A stretch of 64,000 nt of DNA from Anaerotignum sp. (GTDB lineage: Bacteria; Bacillota; Clostridia; Lachnospirales; Anaerotignaceae), in NCBI GenBank assembly GCA_017483025.1, contig JAFUMA010000124.1, positions 2,486 to 66,485 of the forward strand, given 5' to 3'. How positions within the stretch are numbered: the stretch's first letter is position 1; each line of letters opens with the position of its first letter. The notes below the pieces were generated by a model. The model did not search any database and was not told where the DNA came from. It saw only the letters and a list, made by a program, of their open reading frames with translations. Shown piece after piece: positions 40,905 to 58,508 of this stretch. The translations under genes were made by a program, and so were the position numbers.

Positions 40905-40923
40905 GTTTGATCTCCTCCTTTAA

Positions 40924-42432: not shown

Positions 42433-42799
42433 AGGTTCCTCCCTTCCGTAATACAGAGCTTATCAAAGCCCGTTAGTACTTTTTGATGATGCTACTTATA
42501 AATAAAATAAGCTGCTGCAGGTCACGTTTTGCAGGGGCTGCATTTCAACGTTTTCTACATCACGCTTATTTTCGGCAAAATTTTTATATAACATTTAGAA
42601 TTTTTACCTATTTTAATTAAGTATATACTCAAATATGCCAAAATGTCAATACTCTCAGCGAAACATTATATTCAATTTGAATAAAAATTTCCGCCATATC
42701 AACGAGTTATTAGGAACACTTTCTCTATAATAAAAATAGAGTTTTCTTCTTTTATGTGACAATTTTTTCCGGCACATGCTGTCTTTTTTTACAAAAAAA

Positions 42800-42829
42800 A
42801 GCACATATCAACCTCAGTTGATATGCGCT
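42800..42829 (-). terminator. Intrinsic terminator after glcK
   Basis: Minus strand reads AGCGCATATCAAC-tgagg-TTGATATGTGCT followed by T8. Confidence 0.75.
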
Positions 42830-42862
42830 TTCGCGTGAATGTGAAAAAACACATCCTTCATT

Positions 42863-43813: not shown

Positions 43814-43837
43814 ATCTATTACCTTCTCTTTTATTTT

Positions 43838-45493
43838 TTAACATTCCAATGCGTCTAATGTGCAGGTTTTTGCAATGGAGCTGCGGATGGCTGCCCGCAG
43901 AGGCAGCACAGCGTTGGGAGAAACGGACAATTCATCCATACCCATGGCAAGGAACGTAGGCAGCATGCTCAGATCCGCCCCCAGTTCGCCGCAGATACCA
44001 ATCCAAATGCCGGCGTTATGGGCTGCATCTGCAGCCATTTTCAGGGCACGCAGCACTGCAGGATGGTGTGGATCGTAGAATTTGCCCAGATCGTTCGCCT
44101 GTCGGTCACAGGCCAGAGTGTACTGGGTCAGGTCGTTGGTACCGACGGAGAAGAAATCCACTTCTCTTGCCAGTTCTTCCGCTACAAAGATGGACGCAGG
44201 CGTTTCCAGCATGATACCGATCTCTGTGTCTTTGTTGAAGGGAATGCCTTCCTTTTCCAGTTCCGCCATGACCTTCTGGCAGGCCCGTTTACATTCCTTT
44301 ACCTCCCAGACGGAAGTGATCATAGGGAACATGATGGCAACCTTGCCGTAGGCAGATGCACGATACAGGGCTCTTAACTGAGGCTTAAATACCTCGGGGC
44401 GATTCAGGCAGATGCGGATGGCACGTACGCCCAGAGCAGGGTTTTCTTCCTTATTCATGTTAAAGTAGCCCACCTGTTTATCTGCGCCGATATCCAGAGT
44501 ACGGATGATGACGCGCTTGCCATTCATGGCAGCAGCAACAGTCTTGTATGCCTGGAACTGTTCCTCTTCCGTAGGGTAATCGGAAGCCGCCAGATAGAGG
44601 AATTCGCTGCGGAACAGGCCGATACCCTGCCCATCGTTGGCAAGGACGGCCGATACATCCTCGGGAGAACCAATATTGCAGTAAACATTGACTTTTTTGC
44701 CGTCCAACGTAATGTCCTCCTGGCCTCTCATGGTCAGCAGCAGTTCTTTCATTTCCTGCTGCTTCGCATATTTTTCATTGAACTGTGCCAGTGTCAGTTC
44801 ATCGGGGTCGATATAAACACAGCCTACTTCGCCGTCTACACAGGCGATTCTGCCTGCATATTCTTCTTTTAATTCTTCCCCCAAGCCGCAAATGGCAGGG
44901 ATGCCCATGGTGCGGGCAAGGATAGCTGTATGGCTGTTGCTGGAACCGCCTTGCGTCACAAAGCCAAGGATCTTGCTCTTATCCAGCTGGATGGTTTCGG
45001 AAGGAGCCAGGTCATCCGCCGCCAGAATAACAGGCACATCGGAATCGATGCCGCCTTCCACAATGCCCATCAGATTATTAAGGATACGCTTGGAAACATC
45101 ACGGATATCTGCCGCGCGAGCCTGCATATAGGCATCATCCATGGCGGCAAACATAGCAGCGAACTGTTCGCCCGCTTCCTGCACAGCATATTCGGCATTA
45201 CACTGTTCCTCTTCCATACAGGAATAAATGCTTTCTACATAATCTTCATCCTCAACAAACATGGCGTGCGTCTCAAAAAGAACAGCTGCTTCATCGCCGG
45301 CCTCTTCCCTGCATTTTTCCGCCAGTGTTTCCAGCTGAGCGATGGTTTTTTCCTGGGCCTGTACCAGGCGTTCTTTCTCTGCCTGCAAATCTTCCACATG
45401 CCACTGCTTTACAGCAGCATCCTGGCGACAGAAGAAATACAAAGGGCCTTTGATGACGCCCTTGGAGACGCCCTTTCCCTGCATCATAATCAT
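43838..45493 (-). CDS. ptsI: PTS Enzyme I
   Basis: GGSSNSHTAILARTMGIPA (active-site His) and a PEP-utilizer TIM domain with the catalytic Cys (GICGELG). Confidence 0.95.
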   Translation of the reverse strand: MIMMQGKGVSKGVIKGPLYFFCRQDAAVKQWHVEDLQAEKERLVQAQEKTIAQLETLAEKCREEAGDEAAVLFETHAMFVEDEDYVESIYSCMEEEQCNAEYAVQEAGEQFAAMFAAMDDAYMQARAADIRDVSKRILNNLMGIVEGGIDSDVPVILAADDLAPSETIQLDKSKILGFVTQGGSSNSHTAILARTMGIPAICGLGEELKEEYAGRIACVDGEVGCVYIDPDELTLAQFNEKYAKQQEMKELLLTMRGQEDITLDGKKVNVYCNIGSPEDVSAVLANDGQGIGLFRSEFLYLAASDYPTEEEQFQAYKTVAAAMNGKRVIIRTLDIGADKQVGYFNMNKEENPALGVRAIRICLNRPEVFKPQLRALYRASAYGKVAIMFPMITSVWEVKECKRACQKVMAELEKEGIPFNKDTEIGIMLETPASIFVAEELAREVDFFSVGTNDLTQYTLACDRQANDLGKFYDPHHPAVLRALKMAADAAHNAGIWIGICGELGADLSMLPTFLAMGMDELSVSPNAVLPLRAAIRSSIAKTCTLDALEC

Positions 45494-45520
45494 ACCGTTA
45501 TCCCCCTCTGTTACTGTTGC

Positions 45521-45781
45521 TTACAGATTTTCTTTAATGGTGTCTTCCATGGCTTCGATGGCCGCATCTTCGGAAGGACCTTCTGCTGTCACGGTGATCA
45601 CATCGCCTTCTTTTACCCCCAGACCCATCAGCTTCATCAGCTGTGTTGCTTTTACGGATTTGCCTTCCTTAGCGATCATTACGGTTGTATCGGCAAAAGT
45701 TTTGGCAGTCTTTGCCAGGATACCTGCGGGACGTGCATGGATCCCCAGGGGATCTGTGATTGTGTAAGTAAACTGTTTCAT
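45521..45781 (-). CDS. ptsH: HPr phosphocarrier protein (His15 present, canonical Ser46 absent)
   Basis: GIHARPA at residues 13-19. The region equivalent to GKxVNxKSIMG reads GKSVKATQLMK. Confidence 0.9.
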   Translation of the reverse strand: MKQFTYTITDPLGIHARPAGILAKTAKTFADTTVMIAKEGKSVKATQLMKLMGLGVKEGDVITVTAEGPSEDAAIEAMEDTIKENL

Positions 45782-45810
45782 AGTAATTTCCTCCTAATAT
45801 TTTTTCAAAA

Positions 45811-47325
45811 TCAACCTTTATAATTGTTCCAGTTCATGCGTCCATAGCGCACGGTTCCTTCTAAAATTTCCTGCTGCAATTCTGCCGTCAGCTGCTCCGC
45901 TGCGACCCTCCAGCGCCAGTTGATGCCGATGGTAGAGGGCGTATTGATGCGGCATTCATTGCCAAGGCCCAGATAGTCCTGCATGGGAATGATACAGGTT
46001 CTGGCTGCGCTGCGCATGGCCAGCGCGATAAAGGATTTATGCAGTAATTTCAGCGGGGTACGTTCATCGCAGAGATACTTTCTTGCAAGCATCTGTTCTT
46101 CTTTTGTAATAGATTTGAACCAGCCGGCCAGTGTTTCGTTGTCATGGGTGCCTGTGTAGACCACGCTGTTTTCTGTATAGTTATGGGGCAGATAGTCGTT
46201 GGCGGAGCCGGAATCGCGAGAGTCGAAGGCAAATTCCAGTACCTTCATGCCGGGGAAGCCACTGTCGCGCACCAGCTGACGCACAGAATCCGTTACATAA
46301 CCCAGATCCTCCGCAATGACCTCATGCCAGCCCAGATTCTGTTCTGCACAACGGAACAGATCGATGCCGGGGCCTTTTTCCCAGTGGCCATCAATGGCAG
46401 AATCTGCGCCGTAGGGGATGGAATAATATTCGTCAAAGCCGCGGAAATGGTCGATGCGTGTTACATCGTAAAGCTGGAACACATACCACAGACGGCTCAT
46501 CCACCATTGATAGCCTGTCTCTCTGTGATATTCCCAGCGATAAAGGGGATTGCCCCAAAGCTGGCCTGTTGCGGAAAAACCATCAGGAGGGCAGCCTGCC
46601 ACCGCCAGAGGAACGTTATTTTCATCCAACTGGAACAGTTCAGGATGTGCCCATGTGTCAGCGGAATCCATGGCAACATAGATAGGGATATCACCAATGA
46701 TCTTGATATTCTGCTGCTGTGCATAATGTTTCAGCTGCCAGTACTGCTGGAAGAATTTGAACTGCAGATACATCTGGAATTCGATCTCGAAATACAGTTC
46801 TCTGCGGTAATAATCCATGGAATAGCCATAGCGCAGGCGAATATCTTCGGGCCATTCGTACCAACACTGCCCATCAAAGAAATTTTTCAAAGCCATAAAC
46901 AGGGCATAATCGGAAAGCCACCAGTTGTTTTCCGCCACAAATCTCTGATAATCAGGGTTTTCGCTGATATTGCTGCGGTCGTAAGCTTTTTTCAGCAGTT
47001 TGTAGCGGCTGTGATACAATGCTTCATAATCAATATCTGTAGCATCCTTCCCAAAGTCCATCTTATCACATTCTTTTTTCGTCAGCACGCCTTCTTCGAT
47101 CAGGGCTTCCAGATCGATGAAATAAGGGTTGCCTGCAAAAGTTGAAAAAGACTGATAGGGAGAATCCCCATAGCTGGTGGGATGGATGGGCAGGATCTGC
47201 CAATAGGTCTGCCCCGCCTCCTTCAGCCAGTCGATAAACTTATATGCTTCCTTTGAAAAACAGCCGATGCCGTATTTGCCCGGCAGGCTTGTAATAGGCA
47301 TCAAAATGCCTGCTTCTCTCTTCAT
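45811..47325 (-). CDS. malQ: 4-alpha-glucanotransferase (amylomaltase, GH77)
   Basis: GILMPITSLPGKYGIG..., DSADTW..., IDHFRGF, EDLG. Start at MKREAG (GGAG 8 nt upstream). An alternative ATG lies at 47331. Confidence 0.9.
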   Translation of the reverse strand: MKREAGILMPITSLPGKYGIGCFSKEAYKFIDWLKEAGQTYWQILPIHPTSYGDSPYQSFSTFAGNPYFIDLEALIEEGVLTKKECDKMDFGKDATDIDYEALYHSRYKLLKKAYDRSNISENPDYQRFVAENNWWLSDYALFMALKNFFDGQCWYEWPEDIRLRYGYSMDYYRRELYFEIEFQMYLQFKFFQQYWQLKHYAQQQNIKIIGDIPIYVAMDSADTWAHPELFQLDENNVPLAVAGCPPDGFSATGQLWGNPLYRWEYHRETGYQWWMSRLWYVFQLYDVTRIDHFRGFDEYYSIPYGADSAIDGHWEKGPGIDLFRCAEQNLGWHEVIAEDLGYVTDSVRQLVRDSGFPGMKVLEFAFDSRDSGSANDYLPHNYTENSVVYTGTHDNETLAGWFKSITKEEQMLARKYLCDERTPLKLLHKSFIALAMRSAARTCIIPMQDYLGLGNECRINTPSTIGINWRWRVAAEQLTAELQQEILEGTVRYGRMNWNNYKG

Positions 47326-47327
47326 AC

Positions 47328-48179
47328 TCATTTCTCCTTTGTATTGATCAGTACACCAAAATGGTCGGACACGACAGGTCTGTTGCTTCCATTGAAGATA
47401 ACACGGAAAGAACGAACACATACATTTCGGCTGCACCAGATATAATCCAGACGCATTCCTGTTCTCTTGATATCGTTCAGCTTATCCCGCCAACCGTCGA
47501 TGACATCGGGAACGGTGATGCCAAAATCTTTTTCAGCTGCAACCTGATAGGTATCTACCCAGCCGCAGTGCAGGATATGCTCGTAGCTCTGGCCGGGAAC
47601 GATATCAGGTGCATTGAAATCGCCCATCAGCCAGACAGCAGCCTGTTTGCGCTTATGCGAAATGCGCTGGGTAAGTCTTTCCCATTGTTCCAGGAAGGGC
47701 TCTTCTGCATCATCCCACCAGCCCATATGGATGGTGTAAAACCAGTCATCCATGCCTTCCACCTGTACGCCCAGCACAGCGCGGGTGCGCCAGTTGTGGT
47801 AATCATTGGCCTTGCTGATGGGAAAGGCTTCTGCTGCGCTGATCTTCTTGCCAAGGCTTAAGATGGCAACGCCTTCGTCATACTTCCCGTAGCCCAACTT
47901 GATGGGCAGCCACGCCCAGCTGCAGTCGATGCCTGCCTGACGCAGGCGGTAAACTACCTGCGCCGCATGGTTGTCCTGACGGACAGGCTTGCTGCCGGGG
48001 ATGGGAACCTGTCCCTCCAGCAGTTCCGCTCCCGCCAGTTCTGCATCAGCTGTCTGATTCACCTCCTGCAAGGCGATGATGTCAGGTCGTTCTTCCAAAA
48101 TGCCCTCAATGAACCAATCCAGCTTTTTTTCATAATTTTCTTCCTGCAGGGAATGGGTATTCAGTGTCAGCAGTTTCAT
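47328..48179 (-). CDS. Endonuclease/exonuclease/phosphatase-family protein, MapP-like (candidate maltose-6'-phosphate phosphatase)
   Basis: EEP fold motifs (LTLNTHS..., DIIALQEV, ...DH). The position between a maltose/glucose-type PTS EII gene and malQ mirrors the Enterococcus malT-mapP arrangement. Confidence 0.6.
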   Translation of the reverse strand: MKLLTLNTHSLQEENYEKKLDWFIEGILEERPDIIALQEVNQTADAELAGAELLEGQVPIPGSKPVRQDNHAAQVVYRLRQAGIDCSWAWLPIKLGYGKYDEGVAILSLGKKISAAEAFPISKANDYHNWRTRAVLGVQVEGMDDWFYTIHMGWWDDAEEPFLEQWERLTQRISHKRKQAAVWLMGDFNAPDIVPGQSYEHILHCGWVDTYQVAAEKDFGITVPDVIDGWRDKLNDIKRTGMRLDYIWCSRNVCVRSFRVIFNGSNRPVVSDHFGVLINTKEK

Positions 48180-48196
48180 AAAAATCCTCCTTCCCC

Positions 48197-50380
48197 TTAC
48201 AGGATGTCGTTGATATCAGATTTCAAAACATCTGCCTTGGGGCCATAGACCGCCTGGATGCCGTTGTCTTTCTTGATGAGGCCCAGGGCGCCTTCCGCCT
48301 TCCATTCAGCCAGTTCGGCAACCTTGCTCAGGTCTTTTACTGTGACACGCAGACGTGTCATGCAGGCATCCACCAGAGTGATGTTTTCACGACCGCCCAG
48401 GAGAGCGATGATTCGTTCTGCCTGTGTGCCGCCTGCTGTTGTGTTGCTTACGGAAGCGGAAGCTTCTTCGCTTTCTGTTTCGTCTGTATAGTTACCCAGT
48501 CGGCCAGGTGTGGCAAATTTAAATTTGCCGATCATAAAGTATGCAACAAAGTAGCCGATGACAAAGAATGCCACGCAGCAGATCAGGAAGTTGACGATAT
48601 CGCCGTTGAGGCCCGCTTTCAGGGACATGGGCACACGTGTCATGAATTCCAGATTACCGAAGGAATGCAGGCGCAGGTCGATGATGCCCGCCATAGCGAA
48701 GGCACAGCCCTGCAGCAGTGCATATACCACATACAGAGGCAGTGCACAGAACATGAACATGAATTCCAGAGGTTCTGTTACGCCTGTCAGGAATACTGCC
48801 AGAACAGTGGAGATGAACATGGAACGGTAGTTTCTGCGTTTATCCGCATCTACACGGCGATACATTGCCAGGGCGATACCCAGCAGCAGACCTGTTGCAC
48901 CGATCATCTGGCCAACTTTGAAACGGGCAGGTGTAACTGTTGCCAGCAGGTTTTCGTATGCTGCCATGTCACCCATATCCTTGAAGTTGATCAAGTCTGT
49001 TACCCATGCCAGCCACAGAGGGTCCTGACCGAATACTTCGGCGCCGGCGTTGATGCCTGTCTGGATGAGGTATGTGCCGCCGAAGGATGTGTAGTTCATG
49101 GGGATGGTCAGCATATGATGCAGACCGAAGGGCAGCAGCAGACGTTCCAGTGTGCCGTAGATAAAAGGCGCCAGAATAGGAGATGTTGTGGAGGAGTTGG
49201 CAATCCAGATGCCAAAAGCATTGATGCCAGCCTGTACCACAGGCCATACGACTGCCATGATCAGGGAAACGATGGTGGAATAGAAGATAACAGCCAGTGG
49301 AACGAAGCGTTTGCCGTTGAAGAAGGCCAGTGCTTCGGGCAGTTTGCGGAAATTATAGTATTTATTGTAGACAGTACCGCCGACGAAACCGGAGATGATG
49401 CCTACGAAAACACCCATATTCAGCGCAGGAGCGCCCAGAACAGAGGTGAAGTAGTTTTCTACCAGCATTTCCTGACCAAAGAAGGAGGAGACCACAGCGC
49501 CTTCTTCGGAAAGCATTGCGCTGTTTACGCCGAATACTGCACCTGTGATGCAGTTGATCAGGATGAACGCGATGATGGCTGCGAATGCGCCGCCTGCTCT
49601 TTCCTTCGCCCAGGAACCACCGATGGCAGCAGCGAAGAGAATGTGCAGGTTATTGATGATGGCCCAGCCGATGTTTTCCATGGTGGAACCTACGATCATC
49701 AGGAAAGAAAGATCTGCCATCTGGAACAGCTTGCCTACGCTCAGCATAATACCTGCGGCAGGCATAACGGCGATAACTGTCATCAGCACCTTGCCAAGCT
49801 TCTGCAGGAAGTCGAAATTGATGCCGCCTTTTTTCTTGGGTTCTTCTTTTACTGTTTCTACTGCGGCGGGCTCTTCTGCTGCAATTTCCGCTGCAGGAGC
49901 TTCACCACCCAATGTGATGACACTGTCTTTACCAGCCACTACATTGCCGCTTGCTGTGTACAAAGGCAGGTCGTCTGCACCATCGCAGATCAGCACGGGA
50001 GTGATAGTAGGAACGTTTTTGCTTTCCAGGAATTTCAGGTCTACTTCTGCAATCAGATCGCCAGCCTTGACCATGTCGCCCACATTGACATGGCTGACGA
50101 AGCCTTCGCCCTTCAGGGCAACGCTGTCCAGACCCACATGGATAAGAATCTCCAGATCGTCTTCGGAGATGAAGCCGTAAGCATGCAGGGTATCTGCCAC
50201 GCTTGCCACTTCGCCGCTTACGGGTGCGTAAATTTTGCCGTCCTCAGGGATGATAGCGATGCCGTCGCCCAGGATCTTCTGGGAAAAAACTGCATCAGGA
50301 ACCTGTTCCAGAGGAACTACTTTGCCGCTCAGCGGCGCCAGGATGGATTTTACCATTTCGGTATTTGTATTGCTGCTCAT
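48197..50380 (-). CDS. PTS glucose/maltose-family permease with domain order EIIA-EIIC-EIIB
   Basis: The N-terminus is EIIA-Glc (VFSQKILGDG...HAYG...IHVGLDSV). A polytopic EIIC follows. The C-terminus is EIIB (ITLVDACMTRLRV). Start taken at MSSNTN (GAAGGGG RBS). Confidence 0.85.
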   Translation of the reverse strand: MSSNTNTEMVKSILAPLSGKVVPLEQVPDAVFSQKILGDGIAIIPEDGKIYAPVSGEVASVADTLHAYGFISEDDLEILIHVGLDSVALKGEGFVSHVNVGDMVKAGDLIAEVDLKFLESKNVPTITPVLICDGADDLPLYTASGNVVAGKDSVITLGGEAPAAEIAAEEPAAVETVKEEPKKKGGINFDFLQKLGKVLMTVIAVMPAAGIMLSVGKLFQMADLSFLMIVGSTMENIGWAIINNLHILFAAAIGGSWAKERAGGAFAAIIAFILINCITGAVFGVNSAMLSEEGAVVSSFFGQEMLVENYFTSVLGAPALNMGVFVGIISGFVGGTVYNKYYNFRKLPEALAFFNGKRFVPLAVIFYSTIVSLIMAVVWPVVQAGINAFGIWIANSSTTSPILAPFIYGTLERLLLPFGLHHMLTIPMNYTSFGGTYLIQTGINAGAEVFGQDPLWLAWVTDLINFKDMGDMAAYENLLATVTPARFKVGQMIGATGLLLGIALAMYRRVDADKRRNYRSMFISTVLAVFLTGVTEPLEFMFMFCALPLYVVYALLQGCAFAMAGIIDLRLHSFGNLEFMTRVPMSLKAGLNGDIVNFLICCVAFFVIGYFVAYFMIGKFKFATPGRLGNYTDETESEEASASVSNTTAGGTQAERIIALLGGRENITLVDACMTRLRVTVKDLSKVAELAEWKAEGALGLIKKDNGIQAVYGPKADVLKSDINDIL

Positions 50381-50592
50381 TTTTTGACCCCTTCTCAATT
50401 TTATTTTTCTGTAATCATTTCAGAAACTTTCTGCAATCATAATATATCTATTGCATAGAAATTTCAAGACGAAATCACTTCTTATTTATAAGGTTCTCCG
50501 TTATACACAAATTCGCCATATCCATTTTGTGCAAAAATCCTCAAGCATTTGCACAAAAGTTGCACAAGAGCACAAACAGAGCCGCCCTTTAT

Positions 50593-50621
50593 TTGACATT
50601 TCGAAAAATCGTCGTTACAAT
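50593..50621 (+). promoter_or_regulatory. Sigma-A promoter of the LacI-family regulator
   Basis: TTGACA, a 17-nt spacer, then TACAAT. Confidence 0.6.
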
Positions 50622-50683
50622 AGAATGAAAAGAAACTATTTGCATAAAACAAATATTATGTTTCATGAAAAGGATGTGCAACT

Positions 50684-51709
50684 ATGGCAGTTACAATAAA
50701 AGACGTAGCAAAACTGGCGGGCGTTTCCCCTTCCACGGTTTCCCGCGTTTGCAACGACAACCCCGCGATCAGCAGAGAGACCCGTGAAAGAGTACAAAAG
50801 GCCATGACACAGCTGGGCTATGAACTTCCTGCGGCAAATGACGCCCAGACATCTACTTCTATGAAGATGGTAGGCATCATTCTGCCCCCTTCTCCCCAGG
50901 ATGCTTATGACAACACTTTTTATCTGAAAGCGATCCGCGGGATCAGCCGCCTTTGCAATCAGCAGCAGGTGGCCAGCAATGTCATCACCGGGAAAGATTA
51001 CGAAGAGATCCTGCAATCTGTCCAAGCCCTTCACCGCAGCGGTATGGCAGATGGGTTTATTATGCTTTATTCTAAAAAAGATGATATCGTAGTGGATTAT
51101 TTATGCGAGCATGGTCTGCTGTATGTGATCGTCGGCAAAGCAAACGAACTGGCAAATCAGACCATCTGTATCGATAACGACAATCTGCTGGCAGGCAGAG
51201 AAGCAACAGATTATCTGTATGATCTGGGACATCGCCGCATAGGATACCTGGGCGGCAGGAGCGACTTCTTATATGCTTCCGACCGAAAATCCGGCTATCA
51301 GCTTTCCCTCCTGCAGCATGAACTGCCCGTTCGGGCAGAGTATTGCTTTGAGCTGGAAAGTATTCATTCTGACACACTGGATACTTTACAGGAGCTGCTG
51401 GCCAGAGAGGATCGCCCCACCGCTTTTGTTGTCAGCGATGATATGCTGGCATTGGCACTGGAAAGAGTGTGCCTACAGATGCAGCTTTCCATCCCTGATG
51501 ATATTTCCATTATTTCCTTCAACAACTCTCTCTATGCTCAGTTGTCCTCCCCCCAACTGACTTCTGTAGATATCAATCCTTTCCAGCTGGGTCACGAAGC
51601 CGCTGCACAAATCATCAATCATGCAGAATACCCCAACTTGATGGCAACGAAAATCGTTGTCCCCCACCGTATTATAGAACGGGACAGCTGTAAAAAAATC
51701 GAATCATAA
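50684..51709 (+). CDS. LacI-family transcriptional regulator (MalR-like by context)
   Basis: HTH motif VTIKDVAKLAGVSPSTVSRV plus a periplasmic-binding-like effector domain. Divergent from the PTS-malQ operon. Confidence 0.9.
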   Translation: MAVTIKDVAKLAGVSPSTVSRVCNDNPAISRETRERVQKAMTQLGYELPAANDAQTSTSMKMVGIILPPSPQDAYDNTFYLKAIRGISRLCNQQQVASNVITGKDYEEILQSVQALHRSGMADGFIMLYSKKDDIVVDYLCEHGLLYVIVGKANELANQTICIDNDNLLAGREATDYLYDLGHRRIGYLGGRSDFLYASDRKSGYQLSLLQHELPVRAEYCFELESIHSDTLDTLQELLAREDRPTAFVVSDDMLALALERVCLQMQLSIPDDISIISFNNSLYAQLSSPQLTSVDINPFQLGHEAAAQIINHAEYPNLMATKIVVPHRIIERDSCKKIES

Positions 51710-51715
51710 CACAAA

Positions 51716-51746
51716 AAGCACATATCAAGTCCTTGATATGTGCTTT
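51716..51746 (+). terminator. Intrinsic terminator after the LacI-family regulator
   Basis: AAGCACATATCAAG-tcc-TTGATATGTGCTT followed by TTTC TTTT. Confidence 0.8.
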
Positions 51747-51771
51747 TCTTTTATATGCATTTTACGCGTAT

Positions 51772-52083
51772 TTATTTATGCATCTGTTCCCTACTCTGTT
51801 CTTTTTCATTGGCACGAGCCATCAGATCCGCTGCAATCGCAGCGGAAATATTATGCCATGCACGGAAGATCGCGCCAGGTAATGTTGCCAGTGCCAGGGA
51901 GGGGAAACAAGAAGCTGCCAGTGTTGTCCCCATGCCGGAGTTCTGCATGCCAACTTCGATGGCGATAGCCTTTCTCTTTGCAACAGACATCTTCACAATC
52001 TTGCCTGCCAGAAAGCCCAGACCATAACCACAGCATATACCTGGATCGCCGCTTCTGCAGTGGTACCTGTATCTGCTTTTTAC
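51772..52083 (-). pseudogene. 5'-truncated remnant of a bile-acid:Na+ symporter (BASS/SBF) family gene
   Basis: Only the last ~100 codons are open (...GYGLGFLAGKIVKMSVAKRKAIAIEVGMQNSGMGTTLA...). The frame closes at a TGA about 20 nt from the stop of the neighbouring gene, and the ~200 N-terminal residues of this family are missing. Confidence 0.5.
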
Positions 52084-52104
52084 GAATCAACTTTCTGCTC
52101 TGAT

Positions 52105-54060
52105 TTATTTTTTCAGATATTTCATCAGCATCTGTGCCGTATGGGCTCTCTGGGCATGCCCATCGGGGTTCAGTGTGCCATCCTCATTGCCGCTGATGAT
52201 GCCTGCGCCACAGGCCCACTGCATGGCAGGGATTGCATATTCGCTGATATCAAAGGCATCCTCGTAGGAAAGGATATTTGTATCTTCGCCTACGCTCACA
52301 TCATAGCCTTTGTATTTTGCATATCTCCAGAGGATGGATGCCAGCTGTTCTCTTGTCACTGCATCCGCTGCGCCGAAAGTATTGCCGTCATAGCCGGACA
52401 TAACGCCGGTTTCTGTTGCCCAGATTATAGCATCTCTGGAAGGATGGGCTTCCCCCACATCCTGGAAAAAACACTGTGTATATGCTTTAGGGTTGCCTTC
52501 TGCCGCCCACAGTGCTTCCGCTATCATGGCGCGGGTAGTCACATCATGGATGCCGAAAGTACCGTCTGCTTTGTTTTTCAAGATGCCGTTTTTCAGACAA
52601 TATGCAACGCCGTCATGATACCACTGCGTATCAGGGAAACCGTACTCCTTGCCGTCCAGTTTCGCATAACAGGGCATAAAGGCTTTGTTCAGGGCTTCCA
52701 TCCATGTTTTGCCATTGGCGCGTTTCACATCCAGCGTATTGATCATGACATCTCTGGTATTCAGCCTGTTGCCTGTGTCGGGGCTCATGATGGTGCCAAC
52801 TGCGCTGACAACATAATATTTCCCATCTACCTTACCCAGATAGATCATTTCATGTCCGGGGAAGCACAGAGCAGAACCCAGAGGCATTTCATCCAGGATC
52901 AGGCATTTCTCTTCAATAGACATATTTGTCATGTCGATTTTTTCCATATTCATGTTCCACTGCCAGTTACCGTTTCTGGCAACTTCCAGACCAAAGCAGG
53001 AATACACCGTACGCACCAGACCGGAGCAATCCTCTACATCCAGCATGCCGCCCCAGCCATAGGCATCGCCCAAATTATTGAAGGTGATCATAGCGATATT
53101 TTCCATGGTCAGAGGCAGATAACCGATATTAACCTTTGCTGTTTCAGGAATCAGCGCCATCTGTTTGCTGTAACTGCCGTCATCATTGCGTACCGGCAGA
53201 TAAACGACATAGTTATGGTAGGGAGAACGGTTGCCGATCATCTGATCGGGGGCCAGCTCTGTCACCAGCTCCAGAGCCGTGCCTGTGGTCAGCATTCTTC
53301 TGGAGGTCTGGGGTGTTTCATAAGAAGCATCGGTATAAACCTTATTGCCGTAAACCACCAGCAGGTCTTCGGAGGGCAGATCCCACGCTGAGAGCCATTC
53401 TTCCTTATTGGCACAGAGGGCTACATCCTCTGCAGGCACCCAGCCGGAACAGCTGGCAATACGCGCCAGATAATATTTCCCGTCAGCAGAAGTATTATAA
53501 ATGATCAGAGGTTCATTGACAGGCACTGCGCTGAGGGCCATATTGTCAGAATCCTTGTCATTGGGGTCATCCAACAGAAGATTTTCGCTGGGGAACACCT
53601 GCACAACAGTCCTGTTGACGGCAATGCCATAACGGGTTGGCATCACTTCCGCCGCATCGGCGTCCTGTGTATTGTCGATCATTTCCTGAAAATACGCCCA
53701 GTCGGTTTTATTGCCATCCTTATCATATGTCCAGCTCAGGTAATACTGGGCATCAGATGCAGCGGACGAAATCAGAGAAGCATTTCGGGAAATGCCATTG
53801 TATGTTTCTGCGGCTGTTTTCAGATCCATCACCATAGTTCCATCGGCAAGAAAAGTGTCCTCATTGAACGCCTTAATCTCTTCCGGTGTCAGGATCACAT
53901 CTCTGTAGCCTTCATGGTAATCCGCCCAGTAAGATGCCTGAGACATTTCCGCCGTTACATCGGGCATATAGGTGACCCCTGCCAGCGCAGGCTGCACCAT
54001 AGACACCGAAAGCGCCAGAGCCAGAGACAGGCTCAGTATTTTTTTCGGTTTATGTAACAT
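52105..54060 (-). CDS. Secreted NlpC/P60 cell-wall hydrolase with three C-terminal SLH domains
   Basis: Signal peptide and the NlpC/P60 catalytic Cys motif DCSGLVRTVY. Three SLH-like repeats follow (FPDTQW...GTF..., FQDVGEAH...GNTF..., YEDAFDIS...GTLNP). Start at MLHKPKK (GGAGGAG RBS). Confidence 0.8.
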   Translation of the reverse strand: MLHKPKKILSLSLALALSVSMVQPALAGVTYMPDVTAEMSQASYWADYHEGYRDVILTPEEIKAFNEDTFLADGTMVMDLKTAAETYNGISRNASLISSAASDAQYYLSWTYDKDGNKTDWAYFQEMIDNTQDADAAEVMPTRYGIAVNRTVVQVFPSENLLLDDPNDKDSDNMALSAVPVNEPLIIYNTSADGKYYLARIASCSGWVPAEDVALCANKEEWLSAWDLPSEDLLVVYGNKVYTDASYETPQTSRRMLTTGTALELVTELAPDQMIGNRSPYHNYVVYLPVRNDDGSYSKQMALIPETAKVNIGYLPLTMENIAMITFNNLGDAYGWGGMLDVEDCSGLVRTVYSCFGLEVARNGNWQWNMNMEKIDMTNMSIEEKCLILDEMPLGSALCFPGHEMIYLGKVDGKYYVVSAVGTIMSPDTGNRLNTRDVMINTLDVKRANGKTWMEALNKAFMPCYAKLDGKEYGFPDTQWYHDGVAYCLKNGILKNKADGTFGIHDVTTRAMIAEALWAAEGNPKAYTQCFFQDVGEAHPSRDAIIWATETGVMSGYDGNTFGAADAVTREQLASILWRYAKYKGYDVSVGEDTNILSYEDAFDISEYAIPAMQWACGAGIISGNEDGTLNPDGHAQRAHTAQMLMKYLKK

Positions 54061-54255
54061 TTCCAACTCCTCCTTTGCAGTCATATCCTGTTTGTATTGT
54101 ACCACCCTTTTACATTGCTGTCATGCAAAAGACAGAAAACCGACGGCGTAGATTGTGTTCCCATGAGAAAACCGAAAAAACGCACTGATGGGGTGCAGTA
54201 TCCGGGCAGGAAAATCCTACACAGCAAAACATACTGAAGAATAAGCAACAAAAAA

Positions 54256-54301: not shown

Positions 54302-55384
54302 TTAAAAATCCGAGGTAAAGTTAACAGGAATTGTCATTGTTGTGGATGTCGTTTCGGAAGTTGCTGTATCAGTTACTGTGATAGTACCTGTCCATTGGCT
54401 GCCGGAAATATCAAAGTCGCCATTGCTGGTCGCTGCTGCGAAAGATGTATCTTCAAAAAGCCATGTAATATCTTCCATGATCGCCGCAGAAACATCTTCT
54501 TCCACAGCGCCGTAATCTACATATACGCCATATGCAATATTTTCCAAAGCCAGATTCATGGCTGTTTCCAGTGTAGGCGCAGTTACAGTCAATGTTGTGG
54601 GAATGATCACATCTTCTTTTGTATCTGCAAACCATTCTGCGGGCAGTGTCCAGGAAATGGGATATGTACCGGGTTTTACAGACAGGCTGGGCTGCAGATC
54701 AGGAATCAGATAACCTTCTTCAAAATCATAGCTCATGCCCTGGCTGAATAATTCAATATCAGCATTCAGTTCATAATGATATTCGAAGAAATCGGGTTCT
54801 TCCTTGAAAGTTACGCCATCTATAGAAATGATCGTGTCCATTTCCACACCGGCTTCTGTTGTAACAGGGAATGCAGAGGCCACTTCTCCTGCGGGAACTT
54901 CGGGCAGTTTGATGGGTTCTTCTTCCTCTTCAAAGCCTTCCGCTTTTACGATGATTACGGATTTTGTCGCTTCTTCCCAGCCAACGTCATAGCCAAAGGC
55001 TTCTGCCAGATATCTGGCAGGGGCGTAGATACGGCTGTCGGCAATCACGGGTGTCGTATCCATTTCGATAAATCCTTCAACGGTTGAATAATCATTGAGG
55101 AAAGCGTGATATTCATCGACACCGACAGTGAACTCAACTGTTCCAATACCATCAGTAAAGGATGCTGTATTAGTATCATCATTCCATACAACTTCCAGTC
55201 CCAGTGCATTGGCAATAGGGCGCAGGGGCACCAGTGTGCGACTGTCTTCATTGATGAAAGGCTTTGCATCTGTCCATGCAACAGGAGTGCCTTCTACAGT
55301 TACATTAAGATCAGCAGCGAAGACTGTGGTACTCATGCCTACTGCCAGCAAAGCAGCGGAAATTATGGAAAGTATTCTTTTCAT
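54302..55384 (-). CDS. Secreted protein with an N-terminal copper-amine-oxidase-like (stalk) domain and an unassigned C-terminal region
   Basis: Signal peptide (VFAADL). Stalk pattern SRTLVPLRPIANALGLEVVWND...SRIYAPARYLAEAFGYDVGW. Confidence 0.6.
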   Translation of the reverse strand: MKRILSIISAALLAVGMSTTVFAADLNVTVEGTPVAWTDAKPFINEDSRTLVPLRPIANALGLEVVWNDDTNTASFTDGIGTVEFTVGVDEYHAFLNDYSTVEGFIEMDTTPVIADSRIYAPARYLAEAFGYDVGWEEATKSVIIVKAEGFEEEEEPIKLPEVPAGEVASAFPVTTEAGVEMDTIISIDGVTFKEEPDFFEYHYELNADIELFSQGMSYDFEEGYLIPDLQPSLSVKPGTYPISWTLPAEWFADTKEDVIIPTTLTVTAPTLETAMNLALENIAYGVYVDYGAVEEDVSAAIMEDITWLFEDTSFAAATSNGDFDISGSQWTGTITVTDTATSETTSTTMTIPVNFTSDF

Positions 55385-55609
55385 TCTTCATTCCTCCTCA
55401 TATTGAAATTCATATCATTAGCATACAATAACACTATGAATATGTCAACCAGAAGCAGACAGTTGCCTTTGCAGAGAACGCAAAAATCCCCACAGGAACC
55501 TTCCTCCCGTCACGGAAGGCAAGGAAACGCAGGGACAAAATTGAACATTTGCAGAGAACATGATAAGGCGATATAGTTTCCCATATCGTCTTTAAATAGA
55601 AACGAAAAA

Positions 55610-55643
55610 GGCATCCCAGCAAGTTTTTTCCTTGCCCGATGCC
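55610..55643 (-). terminator. Intrinsic terminator immediately after direct-repeat copy A
   Basis: Minus strand reads GGCATCGGGCAAG-gaaaaaa-CTTGCTGGGATGCC followed by TTTTT. Confidence 0.7.
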
Positions 55644-55650
55644 TTTTCAT

Positions 55651-55701
55651 AAGTGTTTCAGCCTCGTAATCCTGGTACGTGCCGAAAGAGTATGGAGGTG
55701 A
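55651..55701. repeat. Direct-repeat copy A (51 nt) of the ssrA 3' end plus its downstream flank
   Basis: By hand alignment, 39 of 51 positions are identical to 57593-57643. Both ends match perfectly: AAGTGTTTCAGCC (13 nt) and TGGAGGTGA (9 nt, the reverse complement of the last tmRNA acceptor bases). Confidence 0.65.
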
Positions 55702-56031
55702 TCCATATATCACGATTATCACTTCCAAACCTTAAGGCTATCCTTTGTAACACAGGTCGAACATTGCTTCTGCCTTCTATCGTCATTCGCCGTTTTTTAT
55801 AAGGGACATGTTTGTTATTCACGCCCACTTTCATCATTGCCGTATAGACATTCCAATACCTCTGCCGAACAAAGAACCTTTCTAATATAAATCATTATGG
55901 AGAATTCATTATTGCAGAGCTTCAGCATGAATAATCAACCTCTAAAAGAACGATTTCTTTTCCGCTTCAAAACAACCCCACTTAATGTTCCCAAAAGTTC
56001 CTTCGGATTGGAGGCTGCGGGCTCCTCGCTG

Positions 56032-56235
56032 TCACAGCAACCTTTCCACCTTTGCGATTGTCTCCTGCTCCGACAGTTCCAGATCTAAAATATCCATAAC
56101 ACGGTCTGTCAGATCAGGCTCCTTCAACACGACAGCAAAAATTTTATGACCGCCTTCATTGGAAATTTTACCGCAGCGAATCATATACTCCAACAAATCC
56201 ACCACGGGCTGTATTTTTTTACGTTTTTCTATCAT
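56032..56235 (-). CDS. Hypothetical small protein (~67 aa)
   Basis: Start at MIEKRKKIQ with GGGAG 9 nt upstream. No family recognised. The ORF-track start at 56301 is probably an over-extension. Confidence 0.3.
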   Translation of the reverse strand: MIEKRKKIQPVVDLLEYMIRCGKISNEGGHKIFAVVLKEPDLTDRVMDILDLELSEQETIAKVERLL

Positions 56236-56357
56236 TCTGCATTTCTCCCTTCTCTGACACGCAGCTGCTCTGTCTTTCTGCCTGCCTGTTATCCCTTTCA
56301 TATACTTGTGTCTATTTTACCACTACTAAATAATAAATACAATTCTATGAGATATAG

Positions 56358-57350
56358 CTATTGTTCTTCAACAGCTTCACAGTATTTTGCCAAATCTAGA
56401 TTATATATTTTTAGATTTTCCTTCTCAAATGAAGTTGCCAGCTTCCATACAAATCTATATTCTTTTTCATGAAGAAATTCTTCAGGTTTATTCATTATAA
56501 TGTCGTTCTCAGCGGTATCTTTAATAAATTGTCCAAGTTTTTCTCCCAAGAATAAGCCAGTAGAGTCCATCTCTTTACAAAAGTCCGTTACAAAATTATC
56601 CGTTTCTATAGAAATAACTTTATCGTTATACATACAATAGCCATGTAAAACTTCTGAAACCAAAAGTCCCATTTTATTAAGAGCACATGTAACTTCCTTA
56701 TGAAAGCTATTTACATCTGTTACTCTGATTAATGCTGAACTATCCTTGGCTTCATCTGGCGAAGAAAACGTTGTGCATAATACGAGAAGACTATCATCAA
56801 AACCTATATCCACTTCCATTTTTTTATTATTTTCAATTATTTCAACAATATTTCTCAATTCATACCTATCACGGCGCGCTTCATTCTCCAATGTTCTGCA
56901 TTGTTTAAATGTGGATAAAAGCAACTCCCCTTTTTTAATAAGGGCCTTAACAAAACCAGGCTGACCAAGATCTCTATACAATGCTTTTGGATCTTCAGAA
57001 TTTTTATACACGGTATGTTCTGCAGCCATCCTCCAATTCAAAGATTCTACTTGATTAATTACCCCTACCATTTCATGTGGCGCGACAACCTGATATTCAT
57101 ACTCAAGCACAGATTTCATTCCCTTTATAATTCTAAACTTATATGTAGAAAAAAATGGCTGATACTGCCACACAAATTTACGCGCATCTTCCAAAGAAGA
57201 AAATCCATAAACAATTATCTGTGCAGTTCTTCGAATCTTCATTTCTATTGGCAAATGTGGTATAGCCGTATAGCCTTCAGGCAATTGTTTCTGAATAGCT
57301 TCGTAATCAAATTCTTTAAATCTTAGTTTCTGCTGATTCATATCACTCAT
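56358..57350 (-). CDS. Orphan hypothetical protein (330 aa), AT-rich gene
   Basis: Long clean ORF with GGAGG 7 nt upstream of the ATG at 57350. No TM segment or signal peptide. No motif I can assign with confidence; there is a faint, unverified resemblance to DUF2971 in the C-terminal half (...EKEYRFVW). Confidence 0.6.
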   Translation of the reverse strand: MSDMNQQKLRFKEFDYEAIQKQLPEGYTAIPHLPIEMKIRRTAQIIVYGFSSLEDARKFVWQYQPFFSTYKFRIIKGMKSVLEYEYQVVAPHEMVGVINQVESLNWRMAAEHTVYKNSEDPKALYRDLGQPGFVKALIKKGELLLSTFKQCRTLENEARRDRYELRNIVEIIENNKKMEVDIGFDDSLLVLCTTFSSPDEAKDSSALIRVTDVNSFHKEVTCALNKMGLLVSEVLHGYCMYNDKVISIETDNFVTDFCKEMDSTGLFLGEKLGQFIKDTAENDIIMNKPEEFLHEKEYRFVWKLATSFEKENLKIYNLDLAKYCEAVEEQ

Positions 57351-57551
57351 TGCTATGACCTCCTTGTTCAAGAATCTTCTTACGATTATTGTAACATATT
57401 ACTCATAACAATAAGTCTCGATTTTCCACCTCCATTGTCAACGTGAAAATCATCTGCTGCACCCACCTTATTGAACCCCCGTCCACTGATTTCCCTAATA
57501 GTTCTTCCTGTTGTAACCTTCGTCATTTTCACTAAATTTAAGATAAAAATA

Positions 57552-57587
57552 AGGGCATCTAGCCAGTCTTTACTGGCTAAATGCCCT
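57552..57587 (-). terminator. Intrinsic terminator immediately after direct-repeat copy B (the functional ssrA terminator)
   Basis: Minus strand reads AGGGCATTTAGCCAGT-aaag-ACTGGCTAGATGCCCT followed by TATTTTT. Confidence 0.75.
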
Positions 57588-57592
57588 ATCAC

Positions 57593-57643
57593 AAGTGTTT
57601 CAGCCAGTCAATCCTTTGACGTGCTGAATGATAGTGGAGGTGA
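57593..57643. repeat. Direct-repeat copy B (ssrA 3' end plus flank)
   Basis: See copy A. Confidence 0.65.
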
Positions 57644-57990
57644 GGGGAATTGAACCCCTGTCCGAAAACCCATCCATAAGAACTTCTCCCATCACAGTCA
57701 GTCTTTTAACATTCCCTCGTTACAACGCCGAATGACAGGCTTTGTCCCTCAGTAGCTTCATGAATCTTTTCCTGCCGCAAAGCTTAGGCAGAAAAGTTCC
57801 CCACCAAGTCGATGCCGGACTCTCCGGCGGTGAGAAACCGGAGGCCGACAGGCGCCGTTAATTAGGCAGCCAGTGCAAAATTATTTTTGTCGTTTCTTTT
57901 TAAAAAAGGTTCCAGCTTGATGACGCGGTTCACTGGTCCGCGGATGGCTATCCCTACTTTCAAGACTCCCGTCGAAACCATTGCACCCCC
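57635..57990 (-). ncRNA. ssrA: tmRNA (SsrA)
   Basis: Minus strand starts GGGGGTGCAATGGTTTCGACGGG and ends GGACAGGGGTTCAATTCCCCTCACCTCCA. An internal tag frame reads ...AAT AAT TTT GCA CTG GCT GCC TAA, so the tag ends in ...NNFALAA. Lies directly downstream of smpB. Confidence 0.9.
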
Positions 57991-58034: not shown

Positions 58035-58508
58035 TTACAAAGTAAGATTTCTGATTTTAAAATCTTTTTCCGCCTGACGACGTACATCGTTCTTGGCAAT
58101 GGTATCCCTCTTGTCATAGAGTTTTTTACCTTTTGCCAGCGCCACATCTACTTTCACATAGCTGCGGTCAAAATACACCTTCAGGGGAACCACTGTATAA
58201 CCCGCTGCGCGGACTTCATGGTCCCATTTGCGGATCTGCACCTTATGCAGCAGCAGTCTTCTGGGGCGCAGAGGGTCTTTGTTGAAGATATTGCCCTGTT
58301 CGTAGGGGCTGATGTGCATGTTGTAGATGAAAGCTTCCCCATCCCTGATCTGGATGTAGCTTTCCTTCAGGCTGCACTTGCCCGCACGCAGGCTTTTCAC
58401 CTCTGTCCCAGCCAAAGAAATGCCGGCCTGTATGGTTTCTTCGATGAAGTAATCATGATATGCTTTTTTATTTTGCGCAATCAGCTTTGTTCCCTTCGCC
58501 TTTGCCAT
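58035..58508 (-). CDS. smpB: SsrA-binding protein
   Basis: IAQNKKAYHDYFIEE...GTEVKSLR...RPRRLLLHK, the SmpB signature. Confidence 0.95.
   Translation of the reverse strand: MAKAKGTKLIAQNKKAYHDYFIEETIQAGISLAGTEVKSLRAGKCSLKESYIQIRDGEAFIYNMHISPYEQGNIFNKDPLRPRRLLLHKVQIRKWDHEVRAAGYTVVPLKVYFDRSYVKVDVALAKGKKLYDKRDTIAKNDVRRQAEKDFKIRNLTL

Follow-up and report, generated by a model that had tools for sequence, protein, structure and literature searches.

Cis-mobilizable elements (CIMEs) are reportedly known from Streptococcus thermophilus, where they are found at the 3' end of fda. They are thought to be deletion derivatives of larger integrative elements, moved together with an incoming element following tandem accretion. 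In Dehalococcoides, fifteen ssrA islands devoid of an integration module have been read as possible cis-mobilizable elements (PMC3146451). Here, we describe an islet adjoining ssrA in a 64-kb window (the whole stretch of Anaerotignum DNA that was analysed), which we liken to both the Dehalococcoides ssrA islands and the cis-mobilizable elements.

Strain and species variants of the locus were retrieved with smpB as query. The comparison sequences are metagenome contigs or MAGs, the sole exception being L018. The locus comprises the following features, listed in the direction of ssrA transcription:

58035-58508, minus strand: smpB (Pfam SmpB, 7.9e-61), the conserved anchor upstream of ssrA
57635-57990, minus strand: ssrA, the tmRNA gene (ARAGORN, Rfam RF00023 and acceptor-stem pairing)
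57593-57643, minus strand: repeat copy B, made up of the last 9 nt of the tmRNA, a hairpin and a conserved block
57634 to about 56358, minus strand: module 1 (~1.29 kb), comprising hairpin, terminator, leader and the gene for a 330-aa protein
57552-57587, minus strand: terminator B, whose 16-bp stem precedes a T-run (terminator scan and fold)
57351-57551, minus strand: leader of module 1 (repeat search and sequence reading)
56358-57350, minus strand: gene for the 330-aa protein, cargo of module 1 and candidate defence gene
55702 to about 56357, minus strand: module 2, delimited by the limits of homology in L107, L110, L106 and L108
56032-56235, minus strand: gene for a 67-aa protein, with which module 2 opens
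55651-55701, minus strand: repeat copy A, the distal boundary of the islet
55606-55647, minus strand: terminator A, a strong bulged stem followed by UUUUUCGUUU (fold)
54302-55384, minus strand: Cu_amine_oxidN1-domain gene (Pfam 7.5e-27), just past the islet

The extent of ssrA is given as 57634-57990 by ARAGORN and as 57632-57990 by Rfam RF00023 (167 bits). We place its 3' end at 57635, based on the acceptor-stem pairing GGGGGTG/CACCTCC and the discriminator A; the gene specifies the tag peptide DKNNFALAA and does not encode CCA. Positions 57635-57643 (TGGAGGTGA on the plus strand) hence correspond to the final 9 nt of ssrA, as the first-pass annotation had it, and the islet starts at these 9 nt, i.e. 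directly at the 3' end of the gene.

The 51-nt repeat bracketing the islet, proposed earlier from a hand alignment, is real: 55651-55701 and 57593-57643 are identical at 39 of 51 positions, with both end blocks perfect. The runner-up ungapped 51-mer in the window (both strands) reaches 27 identities and the maximum over 300 shuffled queries is 31. A repeat search lengthens the pair to 75 nt (55627-55701 and 57569-57643; 73% identity), and BLAST to about 95 nt at 72.6%. Neither a third copy nor a longer array is present in the window, where the 13-nt block GGCTGAAACACTT occurs exactly twice. Copy B consists of TCACCTCCA (57635-57643), a two-tier hairpin (57599-57628) and GGCTGAAACACTT (57593-57605), folding at -12.6 kcal/mol with z = -3.9. 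The same order is seen in copy A, i.e. TCACCTCCA (55693-55701), a variant of the hairpin (55656-55687) and GGCTGAAACACTT (55651-55663), with a fold of -10.3 kcal/mol. The statement that each copy is followed by a terminator of its own also held (57552-57587 for B, 55606-55647 for A); the full segments of 104 nt and 106 nt fold at -43.4 and -34.5 kcal/mol with z = -7.6 and -4.5, respectively, and ssrA is now terminated by terminator B.

All trailer variants adopt the two-tier hairpin fold. An alignment of the six distinct hairpin sequences has 90.9% of cells paired, with three pairs displaying a one-sided change to wobble and none a two-sided change, and with the inner stem of copy A shifted in register. 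No Rfam family matches the trailer hairpin. Rather than an identical att core of the classical type, the 51-nt similarity comprises the last 9 nt of the tmRNA and, behind them, a hairpin trailer in two versions, a native-looking one in copy A and an imported-looking one in copy B.

The islet (55702-57592) has a GC content of 36.6% compared to a mean of 46.9% (sd 2.7%), the lowest of any 1.9-kb window in the 64 kb, with the gene for the 330-aa protein by itself at 33.6%. This bears out the low GC reported for the islet, and the reported lack of a recombinase was likewise confirmed: none of the islet ORFs has a recombinase match in Pfam, PADLOC or NCBIfam, and tblastn of four recombinases encoded at related loci (three serine, one tyrosine) against the 64-kb window gave nothing better than E = 0.9. 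The description of its genes as orphans holds in part only: the 330-aa protein has 20 homologue clusters (37-100% identity) and 466 remote representatives. That the islet is an inserted element is supported, while its treatment as one unit is not, as two juxtaposed modules were found that occur apart in L101, L107 and L106.

Related loci were inspected for the empty site predicted by the first-pass annotation, and contigs L011, L005 and L091 were indeed found to be free of the islet, with a hairpin next to ssrA in all three. In L011 and L005, the trailer hairpin following ssrA is identical to that of copy B at 47 of 47 and 45 of 47 positions, respectively, followed by a terminator 91% identical to terminator A over 68 nt. 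The L011 and L005 loci equal copy B in their left part and copy A in their right part, the two overlapping in the 13-nt GGCTGAAACACTT. A scan of metagenomes for the 9 nt, 29 N and the 13-nt block recovered only the insert-free site of L091 and a match in L092 that is probably due to chance; when viral contigs were scanned for hairpin plus block, the number of matches was 0. Neither the islet nor the Cu_amine_oxidN1 gene is located downstream of ssrA in L012 and L013. In L012, a sister species, the latter gene is missing from the corresponding position, with homology to the window resuming at 54076. L001 is 99.8% identical to the window upstream, and from the tmRNA end onward contains different DNA, representing another island. 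L013, whose flank resembles that of L001, was considered as an additional island and rejected, as ordinary genes follow the flank. Close relatives are thus polymorphic for presence or absence, with the insert absent (L011, L005 and L091), a single module present (L107 and L101) or another island in its place (L001). Contigs encoding an identical Cu_amine_oxidN1 protein all carry the islet or break off inside or just beyond it; none with this gene and no islet was found among them. Separately, a 69-nt indel polymorphism with a 12-nt direct repeat at its flanks is located at 55479-55559, 100 nt from the islet.

By sequence comparison, the islet appears to be a composite of module 1 and module 2, with the junction at about 56357/56358, where the 330-aa gene has just ended with its stop codon. 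Homology to the window begins at 56358 in L107 and L110, and spans 56354 to 56012 in L106 and L108. Over its left end, module 2 shows 90% identity to the beginning of a larger island in L106 and L108, in which the 67-aa gene comes first and is followed by Band_7_1, DUF4428, NTP_transf_2 and HsdM_N genes; both contigs end within that island, and no recombinase was seen in the part that they cover. Module 2 appears to be the remnant of a larger ssrA island. L110 has an IS21 element upstream of the 67-aa gene, and L107 contains module 2 without module 1, with a different proximal arm and a distal end consisting of TCACCTCCA, hairpin A and terminator A. Copy A is again distal in L107, where it adjoins the Cu_amine_oxidN1 gene and the ssrA-proximal flank lacks the hairpin. 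Its 5' part is furthermore similar to the native trailer of L012. Copy A is therefore probably the native ssrA trailer, displaced. Copy B is probably an arm imported by module 1.

Module 1 is found alone in L101, apparently in tandem: 17 nt past the stop codon, a second unit of 9 nt, hairpin, terminator and leader follows, forming a 243-nt repeat with 95% identity, within which the leader is conserved. This leader contains an AAGGAGG ribosome-binding site (57359-57365), a 15-mer resembling the tmRNA T-arm (57470-57484) and a putative extended -10 promoter (TGTTACAAT, 57388-57396) that was not recovered by a consensus scan. No copy of the 9 nt is present at the junction between modules 1 and 2 (about 56358), such that a further deletion there must be assumed; in the window strain, the repeats bracket at most the whole 1.9 kb.

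Of the 41 smpB-ssrA loci, three have a downstream repeat of the ssrA end and its flank: the window (39/51), L023 (49/51) and L018 (32/51, with 14 nt exact). All three repeats begin exactly at TCAYCTCCA, 9 nt before the tmRNA end, and the same left boundary is seen in L101, L107, L018 and L023. L018 and L023 contain islands of 6-7 kb at the insertion base of the window, delimited by the 9 nt and a diverged or near-identical flank. Each encodes a Resolvase/Recombinase/Zn_ribbon_recom protein (533 aa in L018 and 529 aa in L023, 52% identical to each other) located 0.2-0.6 kb from ssrA. The cargo includes one known or likely defence gene apiece, an OLD-like ATPase-Toprim protein (3.6e-40) in L018 and a viperin-like radical-SAM protein (2.5e-16) in L023. 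A comparison of the arms left of the distal copies with those of L018 and L023 gave no convincing shared motif or dyad symmetry; hence, the link to serine recombinases is made through the insertion point only.

We conclude that the islet is probably a composite remnant, devoid of a recombinase, of two or more site-specific insertions into a single fixed site located 9 nt before the tmRNA 3' end. The ancestral order would have been smpB, ssrA, hairpin A, terminator A and the Cu_amine_oxidN1 gene. Comparison of the loci indicates that an island whose first gene encodes the 67-aa protein entered at the fixed ssrA point and displaced the native trailer (copy A), now headed by the 9-nt duplicate. 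An internal deletion may then have shrunk this island to the approximately 0.65 kb of module 2. The comparison likewise indicates that the 1.29-kb module 1 took the ssrA-proximal position, arriving with the 9 nt, a hairpin trailer and a terminator of its own, the leader with its putative promoter and the 330-aa gene. The 51-nt repeat would be accounted for by the homology, by now diverged, of the module 1 arm to the native trailer. By analogy with L018 and L023, the enzyme was probably a large serine recombinase from full-length islands of the same kind; the modules would now move only with a recombinase supplied in trans, or be lost by recombination between the repeats. The proposal that an element targeted the ssrA 3' end and supplied a replacement flank is supported by the insert-free relatives, the low GC, the significance of the repeat and the L018 and L023 islands. 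Several points count against such an origin, among them the metagenomic nature of the comparison sequences other than L018, the arms without a clear shared motif and the missing 9-nt copy at the module junction. Moreover, the 64-kb window lacks a recombinase, no circular or excised form is known, and the insert-free sites join at GGCTGAAACACTT rather than at the 9 nt, which calls for another round of recombination or else for a crossover located elsewhere than L107, L018 and L023 imply.

This joining at the 13-nt block would fit a scheme in which the 51-nt unit is itself a structured recombination site, with crossover in the block and the enzyme encoded elsewhere, an explanation we consider unlikely. 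The native site would then be ssrA, hairpin B and block as found in L011, and the mobile unit would be a cassette that begins with terminator B, includes all of copy A and has an end that mimics that of ssrA. Hairpin B matches that of L011 throughout although the tmRNA region is only about 94% identical, and the two successive units in L101 fit the same scheme. So do the two-tier fold of every hairpin variant, the compatibility of all three one-sided changes with wobble pairing on the tmRNA-sense strand, and a block variant that is common to both copies within a genome (ACTT in the window, AATT in L101). However, the L107 insertion is bounded by the 9 nt alone, with a proximal arm that has no hairpin, and the repeats of L018 and L023 also begin at the 9 nt in flanks that lack such a hairpin. 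Compensatory two-sided changes were not observed, the inner stem of copy A is register-shifted, and the window holds just two copies; the scans of viral and metagenome sequences provided only one further insert-free site and one chance-like match. Under such a scheme, a unit could consist of an ssrA-trailer mimic, a terminator, a promoter and one defence-type gene. It is decidedly doubtful that the 51-nt unit is the dedicated site of a minimal ssrA cassette system, with recombinase-less 1.3-kb units stacked and exchanged in trans and the 330-aa protein as a new single-gene antiphage effector.

We find it quite unlikely that the insertions were made by tyrosine-integrase islands of the classic tRNA/tmRNA-targeting type, with arm-type repeats and subsequent deletion of the integrase. 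ssrA is well known as a tyrosine-integrase target (PMC3146451), and the relative L026 contains a Phage_integrase-family ORF directly after ssrA (1e-07). Furthermore, the proximal arms of L001, L107 and L013 are mutually homologous, each with a terminator and, beyond it, a pair of short direct repeats (GTTCTCAAA or GGTACTCAA) resembling arm-type sites. In L013, however, the same arm-like flank precedes housekeeping genes and no island, so that it may be just another native trailer type, and the only complete islands at the exact base (L018 and L023) encode large serine recombinases.

It is very unlikely that no dedicated recombinase was involved, and that the hot spot was instead rearranged through general or short-homology recombination, with ssrA, the 9 nt, the 13-nt block and the similar terminators serving as the conserved blocks and DNA from relatives arriving by transformation or conjugation. 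The mosaic breakpoints do sit in short identical blocks, and the 69-nt indel with its 12-nt repeat indicates that short-repeat deletions happen here. In contrast, five independent distal copies start at one exact base with unrelated DNA to their left, two of the five within islands encoding a site-specific recombinase, and target duplications are not produced by homologous exchange. Integron attC or IS200/IS605-type hairpin ends were rejected since an enzyme to match is lacking, the end blocks do not complement each other and insert-free sites also contain hairpin B. A crossover within the loop of the hairpin, the position expected for a serine-recombinase site with the dyad at its centre, was also rejected: copy B equals the L011 trailer over the whole hairpin, leaving no sign of a hybrid.

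The 330-aa protein carried by module 1 has a ferredoxin-like domain at the N-terminus and a conserved domain, about 200 aa long, at the C-terminus. AlphaFold2 models (pLDDT 82 and 86) of the full protein and of the C-terminal domain gave no Foldseek match at E <= 0.001 in either PDB or BFVD; the best E against PDB is 2.1e-3 for the full model, covering the N-terminal ferredoxin-like domain only, and 0.54 for the C-terminal domain model. No significant match was obtained in Pfam, PADLOC or NCBIfam, nor any match in a PDB sequence search or by tblastn against phage and plasmid records, while a PHROGs scan gave one family only, phrog_13198 (1.5e-07), of unknown function. Three of five homologues reside in neighbourhoods rich in defence genes. 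The dN/dS of the gene compared to the L101 allele is 0.18, and inactivating mutations are present in three assemblies. The homologue loci L006 and L008-L010 contain neither a tmRNA gene nor hairpin-type repeats. The two islet genes were also considered as a conserved pair, which was rejected given that the 67-aa protein is unlike the product of the 82-aa gene following the L006 homologue. The 330-aa protein most likely serves a single-gene accessory function, possibly phage defence. It resembles the Aristaios/DUF2971 antiphage proteins in size (330 aa compared to 316 aa) and in being encoded by a single gene (PMC11381338, PMC12522546), and its conserved C-terminal E-x-E-Y-R motif and R...S-T-F pattern are reminiscent of ART motifs. 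Among weak Pfam matches in the wider family, DUF2971 is the most frequent, with sub-threshold matches among remote relatives in 1 of 10 and in 3 of 126 (best E = 9e-4 for the latter set). In contrast to those proteins, the 330-aa protein has no PF11185 match, and an ADP-ribosyltransferase fold is absent from its Foldseek PDB matches.

The comparison of these loci indicates that one exact base of an essential tmRNA gene serves as a landing pad in Anaerotignum and relatives, where small accessory islands are stacked, decay and are swapped among strains of one species, and where incoming elements must each supply a working ssrA terminator. Two leads are provided: a family of large serine recombinases that are specific for ssrA and have short natural att sites, for which L018 (Anaerotignum sp. 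MB30-C6) is available as a cultured source, and a sparse family of proteins of about 330 aa with no recognisable fold that recurs among defence genes.

Compared to integron cassettes, the modules are likewise small, mostly single-gene units, with successive units at one locus in L101, and the hairpin trailers share with attC sites a structured imperfect palindrome with conserved ends and a variable centre. However, the islet has neither IntI nor attI, there is no tyrosine recombinase in the window, and TCACCTCCA and GGCTGAAACACTT are not mutually complementary as R''/R' boxes are. Module 1 moreover has its own putative promoter and its own terminator, and the insertion point lies in the tmRNA gene. 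With CIMEs the islet shares att-like repeats at a specific chromosomal site and the lack of recombination and transfer genes; it differs in that the module junction has no repeat copy, and is only putatively mobile. The Dehalococcoides islands are similarly inserted at the 3' end of a single-copy ssrA, and many are devoid of an integration module, low in GC and strain-variable (PMC3146451). Their large serine recombinase gene, at the ssrA-proximal boundary and on the reverse strand (PMC3146451), has a positional counterpart in L018 and L023, and is absent from the window, whose host is a Bacillota gut anaerobe. The duplicated gene part is 20 bp in Dehalococcoides and 9 nt here, where, unlike in Dehalococcoides, similarity between diverged trailers follows the 9 nt for up to about 95 nt. 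The Dehalococcoides islands measure several kb to tens of kb, compared to 1.3 kb and 0.65 kb for the two modules. The islet is an ordinary kind of element, which leaves the current understanding of genomic islands unchanged.

The tmRNA gene ssrA and its neighbour smpB lie on the minus strand of the window, and a low-GC islet of ~1.9 kb, bracketed by two repeat copies, occupies the DNA 3' of ssrA:

58035-58508, minus strand, smpB
about 57635-57990, minus strand, ssrA

The first-pass annotation described a 51-nt repeat with a separate strong terminator behind each copy, enclosing low-GC DNA that lacks an integrase or recombinase, and this description holds. Copy A (55651-55701, distal) and copy B (57593-57643, ssrA-proximal) are identical at 39/51 positions, compared to 27 for the second-best 51-mer in the window and a maximum of ≤31 from 300 shuffled queries. 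The similarity covers 75 nt at 73% in a repeat search and ~95 nt by BLAST. In the direction of ssrA, each copy runs from TCACCTCCA, the last 9 nt of the tmRNA, through a two-tier hairpin and a 13-nt block (GGCTGAAACACTT) to its own strong terminator. The GC content between the copies is 36.6%, the minimum among 1.9-kb stretches of the window (mean 46.9%, sd 2.7%), and no recombinase was found between them. Copy A with its upstream bases (55693-55705) reads TGGATCACCTCC on the minus strand, the same as the 3' end of 16S rRNA; equivalently, the plus strand displays a strong ribosome-binding-like motif, GGAGGTGA, with no start codon behind it; both matches are taken to be coincidence.

All hairpin variants (that of copy A, that of copy B with four minor variants, and that of the sister species L012) fold into two tiers upstream of a terminator. 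Pairing accounts for 90.9% of cells in an alignment of the six distinct sequences, and three one-sided changes lead to G-U pairs on the tmRNA-sense strand; no double-sided covariation was found in these six. The inner stem of copy A is shifted in register. No Rfam family matches the hairpin, and it is possible that it acts in RNA, as a putative precursor trailer of tmRNA.

Among contigs encoding an identical SmpB and species-level relatives, the DNA 3' of ssrA is highly variable. Empty sites, which the first-pass annotation had proposed to look for, are present in three related contigs (L011, L005 and L091). Here the islet is absent and ssrA is followed by a hairpin (47/47 positions shared with copy B in L011, 45/47 in L005). 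In L011 and L005 the hairpin is joined to a terminator 91% identical to terminator A over 68 nt, the copy-B-like and copy-A-like matches overlapping within the 13-nt block. A HIT-family gene comes next, as read from translated sequence. The hairpin-terminator junction is exactly the product expected of recombination between copies A and B in that block. In L012, a third hairpin variant and terminator lead directly into a homologue of the window gene at 52105-54105, and hence neither the islet nor the Cu_amine_oxidN1 gene (54302-55384) of the window has a counterpart there. Every contig encoding the identical Cu_amine_oxidN1 protein has the islet or ends inside or just beyond it, and none carries the gene without the islet. 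Another contig, L001, matches the window at 99.8% identity across 6.4 kb upstream and, precisely where the tmRNA ends, switches to different AT-rich DNA.

The L001 DNA (6875-7316) is a different element. A terminator and a pair of GTTCTCAAA repeats come first; beyond these, raw translation suggests one truncated HTH gene and the beginning of a second. Homologues of this arm flank ssrA in L107 and L013. Elsewhere in the window, ~16 kb (36044-52096) are absent from the syntenic L012 region and may represent a second, larger variable region, with a LacI-family regulator and PTS transporter at the ssrA-side end according to gene calls on overlapping contigs. A 69-nt segment between 12-nt direct repeats GTTCTCTGCAAA (55479-55559) is missing from L002, L093, L105, L107 and L111; therefore short-repeat deletions occur at this locus.

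The arrangements in five further contigs allow the islet to be divided into two modules, which occur independently. L101 contains, in order, ssrA, the 9 nt, hairpin, terminator, leader and an allele of the islet's 330-aa gene, whose product is 83% identical. The series of 9 nt, hairpin, terminator and leader starts again 17 nt past the stop codon, the two units forming a 243-nt repeat of 95% identity whose second copy reaches the contig end. L107 is without hairpin B, terminator B, leader and 330-aa gene; a different terminator arm of ~170 nt follows ssrA, and the contig rejoins the window at 56358, directly past the 330-aa stop codon, continuing through the 67-aa gene to TCACCTCCA, hairpin A, terminator A and Cu_amine_oxidN1. 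In L106 and L108, Band_7_1, DUF4428, NTP_transf_2 and HsdM_N genes come after the 67-aa region (90% identical to window 56354-56012), and L110 has an IS21 element upstream of its 67-aa gene. On sequence comparison we define module 1 (57634 to ~56358) as a discrete 1.29-kb unit and module 2 (~56357 to 55702) as what is probably left of a larger island after deletion. Copy A and terminator A are most simply a displaced native trailer; the first bases of copy A resemble the native trailer of L012. The leader of the 330-aa gene also repeats 15 nt of the tmRNA T-arm as GGACGGGGGTTCAAT (57470-57484; GGACAGGGGTTCAAT in the tmRNA itself), ~70 nt downstream of terminator B and retained in both L101 leaders (~315-329 and 1605-1619). 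This copy probably accounts for a spurious permuted 'tmRNA*' called by ARAGORN (57087-57728) and a weak Rfam tmRNA_permuted hit, and might be a second recombinase-binding site or the relic of an older insertion.

Only 3 of the 41 smpB-ssrA loci with enough downstream sequence repeat the ssrA end and flank downstream: the window (39/51), L023 (49/51) and L018, the complete genome of Anaerotignum sp. MB30-C6 (32/51, 14 nt exact). All three repeats start exactly at TCAYCTCCA, and the left boundary is the same base in every distal copy; no convincing shared motif was found in the arms to the left of the distal copies. Large serine recombinases (533 aa in L018, 529 aa in L023; 52% identity) are encoded on the reverse strand 0.2-0.6 kb from ssrA. 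Besides a DUF1643 and an HTH protein, the 6.2-kb island of L018 encodes an OLD-like ATPase-Toprim protein (PADLOC 3.6e-40). Its flank copies have diverged to 75% over 36 nt and have one terminator each, the same architecture as in the window. In L023 the 7.3-kb island encodes a PDDEXK_2 protein together with a viperin-like radical-SAM protein (2.5e-16). There, 300 nt that include the 3' end of the recombinase gene are repeated at 99% identity (8858-9157 and 16135-16434), which suggests that this island is present twice in tandem.

Comparison with close relatives shows that the islet was inserted, and that these sequences have recombined in the 13-nt block at least once in the past. We propose that large serine recombinases of the type encoded in L018 and L023 made the insertions, that copy B would have arrived with module 1, copy A being native, and that module 2 lost its proximal arm through a small deletion, either as module 1 came in or later. 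The L011-type sites are either pristine or scars of deletion between repeats, so that either the 9 nt or the 13-nt block may hold the crossover point.

The 330-aa ORF is 100% identical to a 'hypothetical protein [Anaerotignum sp.]', which assigns the window to a species of that genus. The protein is of a sparse family (20 clusters among 5.8 billion), its C-terminal domain (~200 aa) having 466 remote representatives. R126, D161, E164, Y241, K288, E297 and R299 are nearly invariant in the wide family. Structure models are confident (pLDDT 82 and 86), with no PDB or BFVD match at E ≤ 0.001. DUF2971, described as ADP-ribosyltransferase-like and including the antiphage protein Aristaios (PMC12522546, PMC11381338), is a rare, sub-threshold match in the family. 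Defence genes lie beside homologues in 3/5 neighbourhoods examined:

L006, Dnd genes and a SIR2 protein, adjoining a small serine recombinase
L009, an AAA_15/AAA_21 ATPase
L010, Thoeris genes and an AAA_21+RloB pair

The remaining neighbourhoods, L008 (KAP NTPase gene ~2.6 kb off) and L102, are not clearly defence-rich. A role in defence is no more than a reasonable guess. In L006 the homologue (43% identity) adjoins a 380-aa serine recombinase and a SHOCT_2 gene (6471-9433), which may be another small mobile unit with the same cargo family; downstream, inside the Dnd/SIR2 region, are two long-repeat families (77 and 96 nt) with 168-nt spacing. A dN/dS of 0.18 against the L101 allele indicates purifying selection on the gene (56358-57350). 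Three assemblies (L094, L002, L109) have lost 1 nt from an A-run at gene position 525, which shifts the reading frame, and two of the three have a C447T nonsense change as well; the gene is thus inactive in some strains, or possibly phase-variable.

The finding stands, and the original reading of an element at the ssrA 3' end that brought a replacement flank is essentially right. What distinguishes the locus is the fixed insertion base, the trailers brought by incoming elements and the composite structure. The islet is best read as an ssrA-specific island remnant or a cis-mobilizable element, a new example of a kind already known. Its nearest counterpart in the literature is the set of tandem ssrA islands in Dehalococcoides; 15 of those are without an integration module, and the authors considered that they might be cis-mobilizable elements (PMC3146451).
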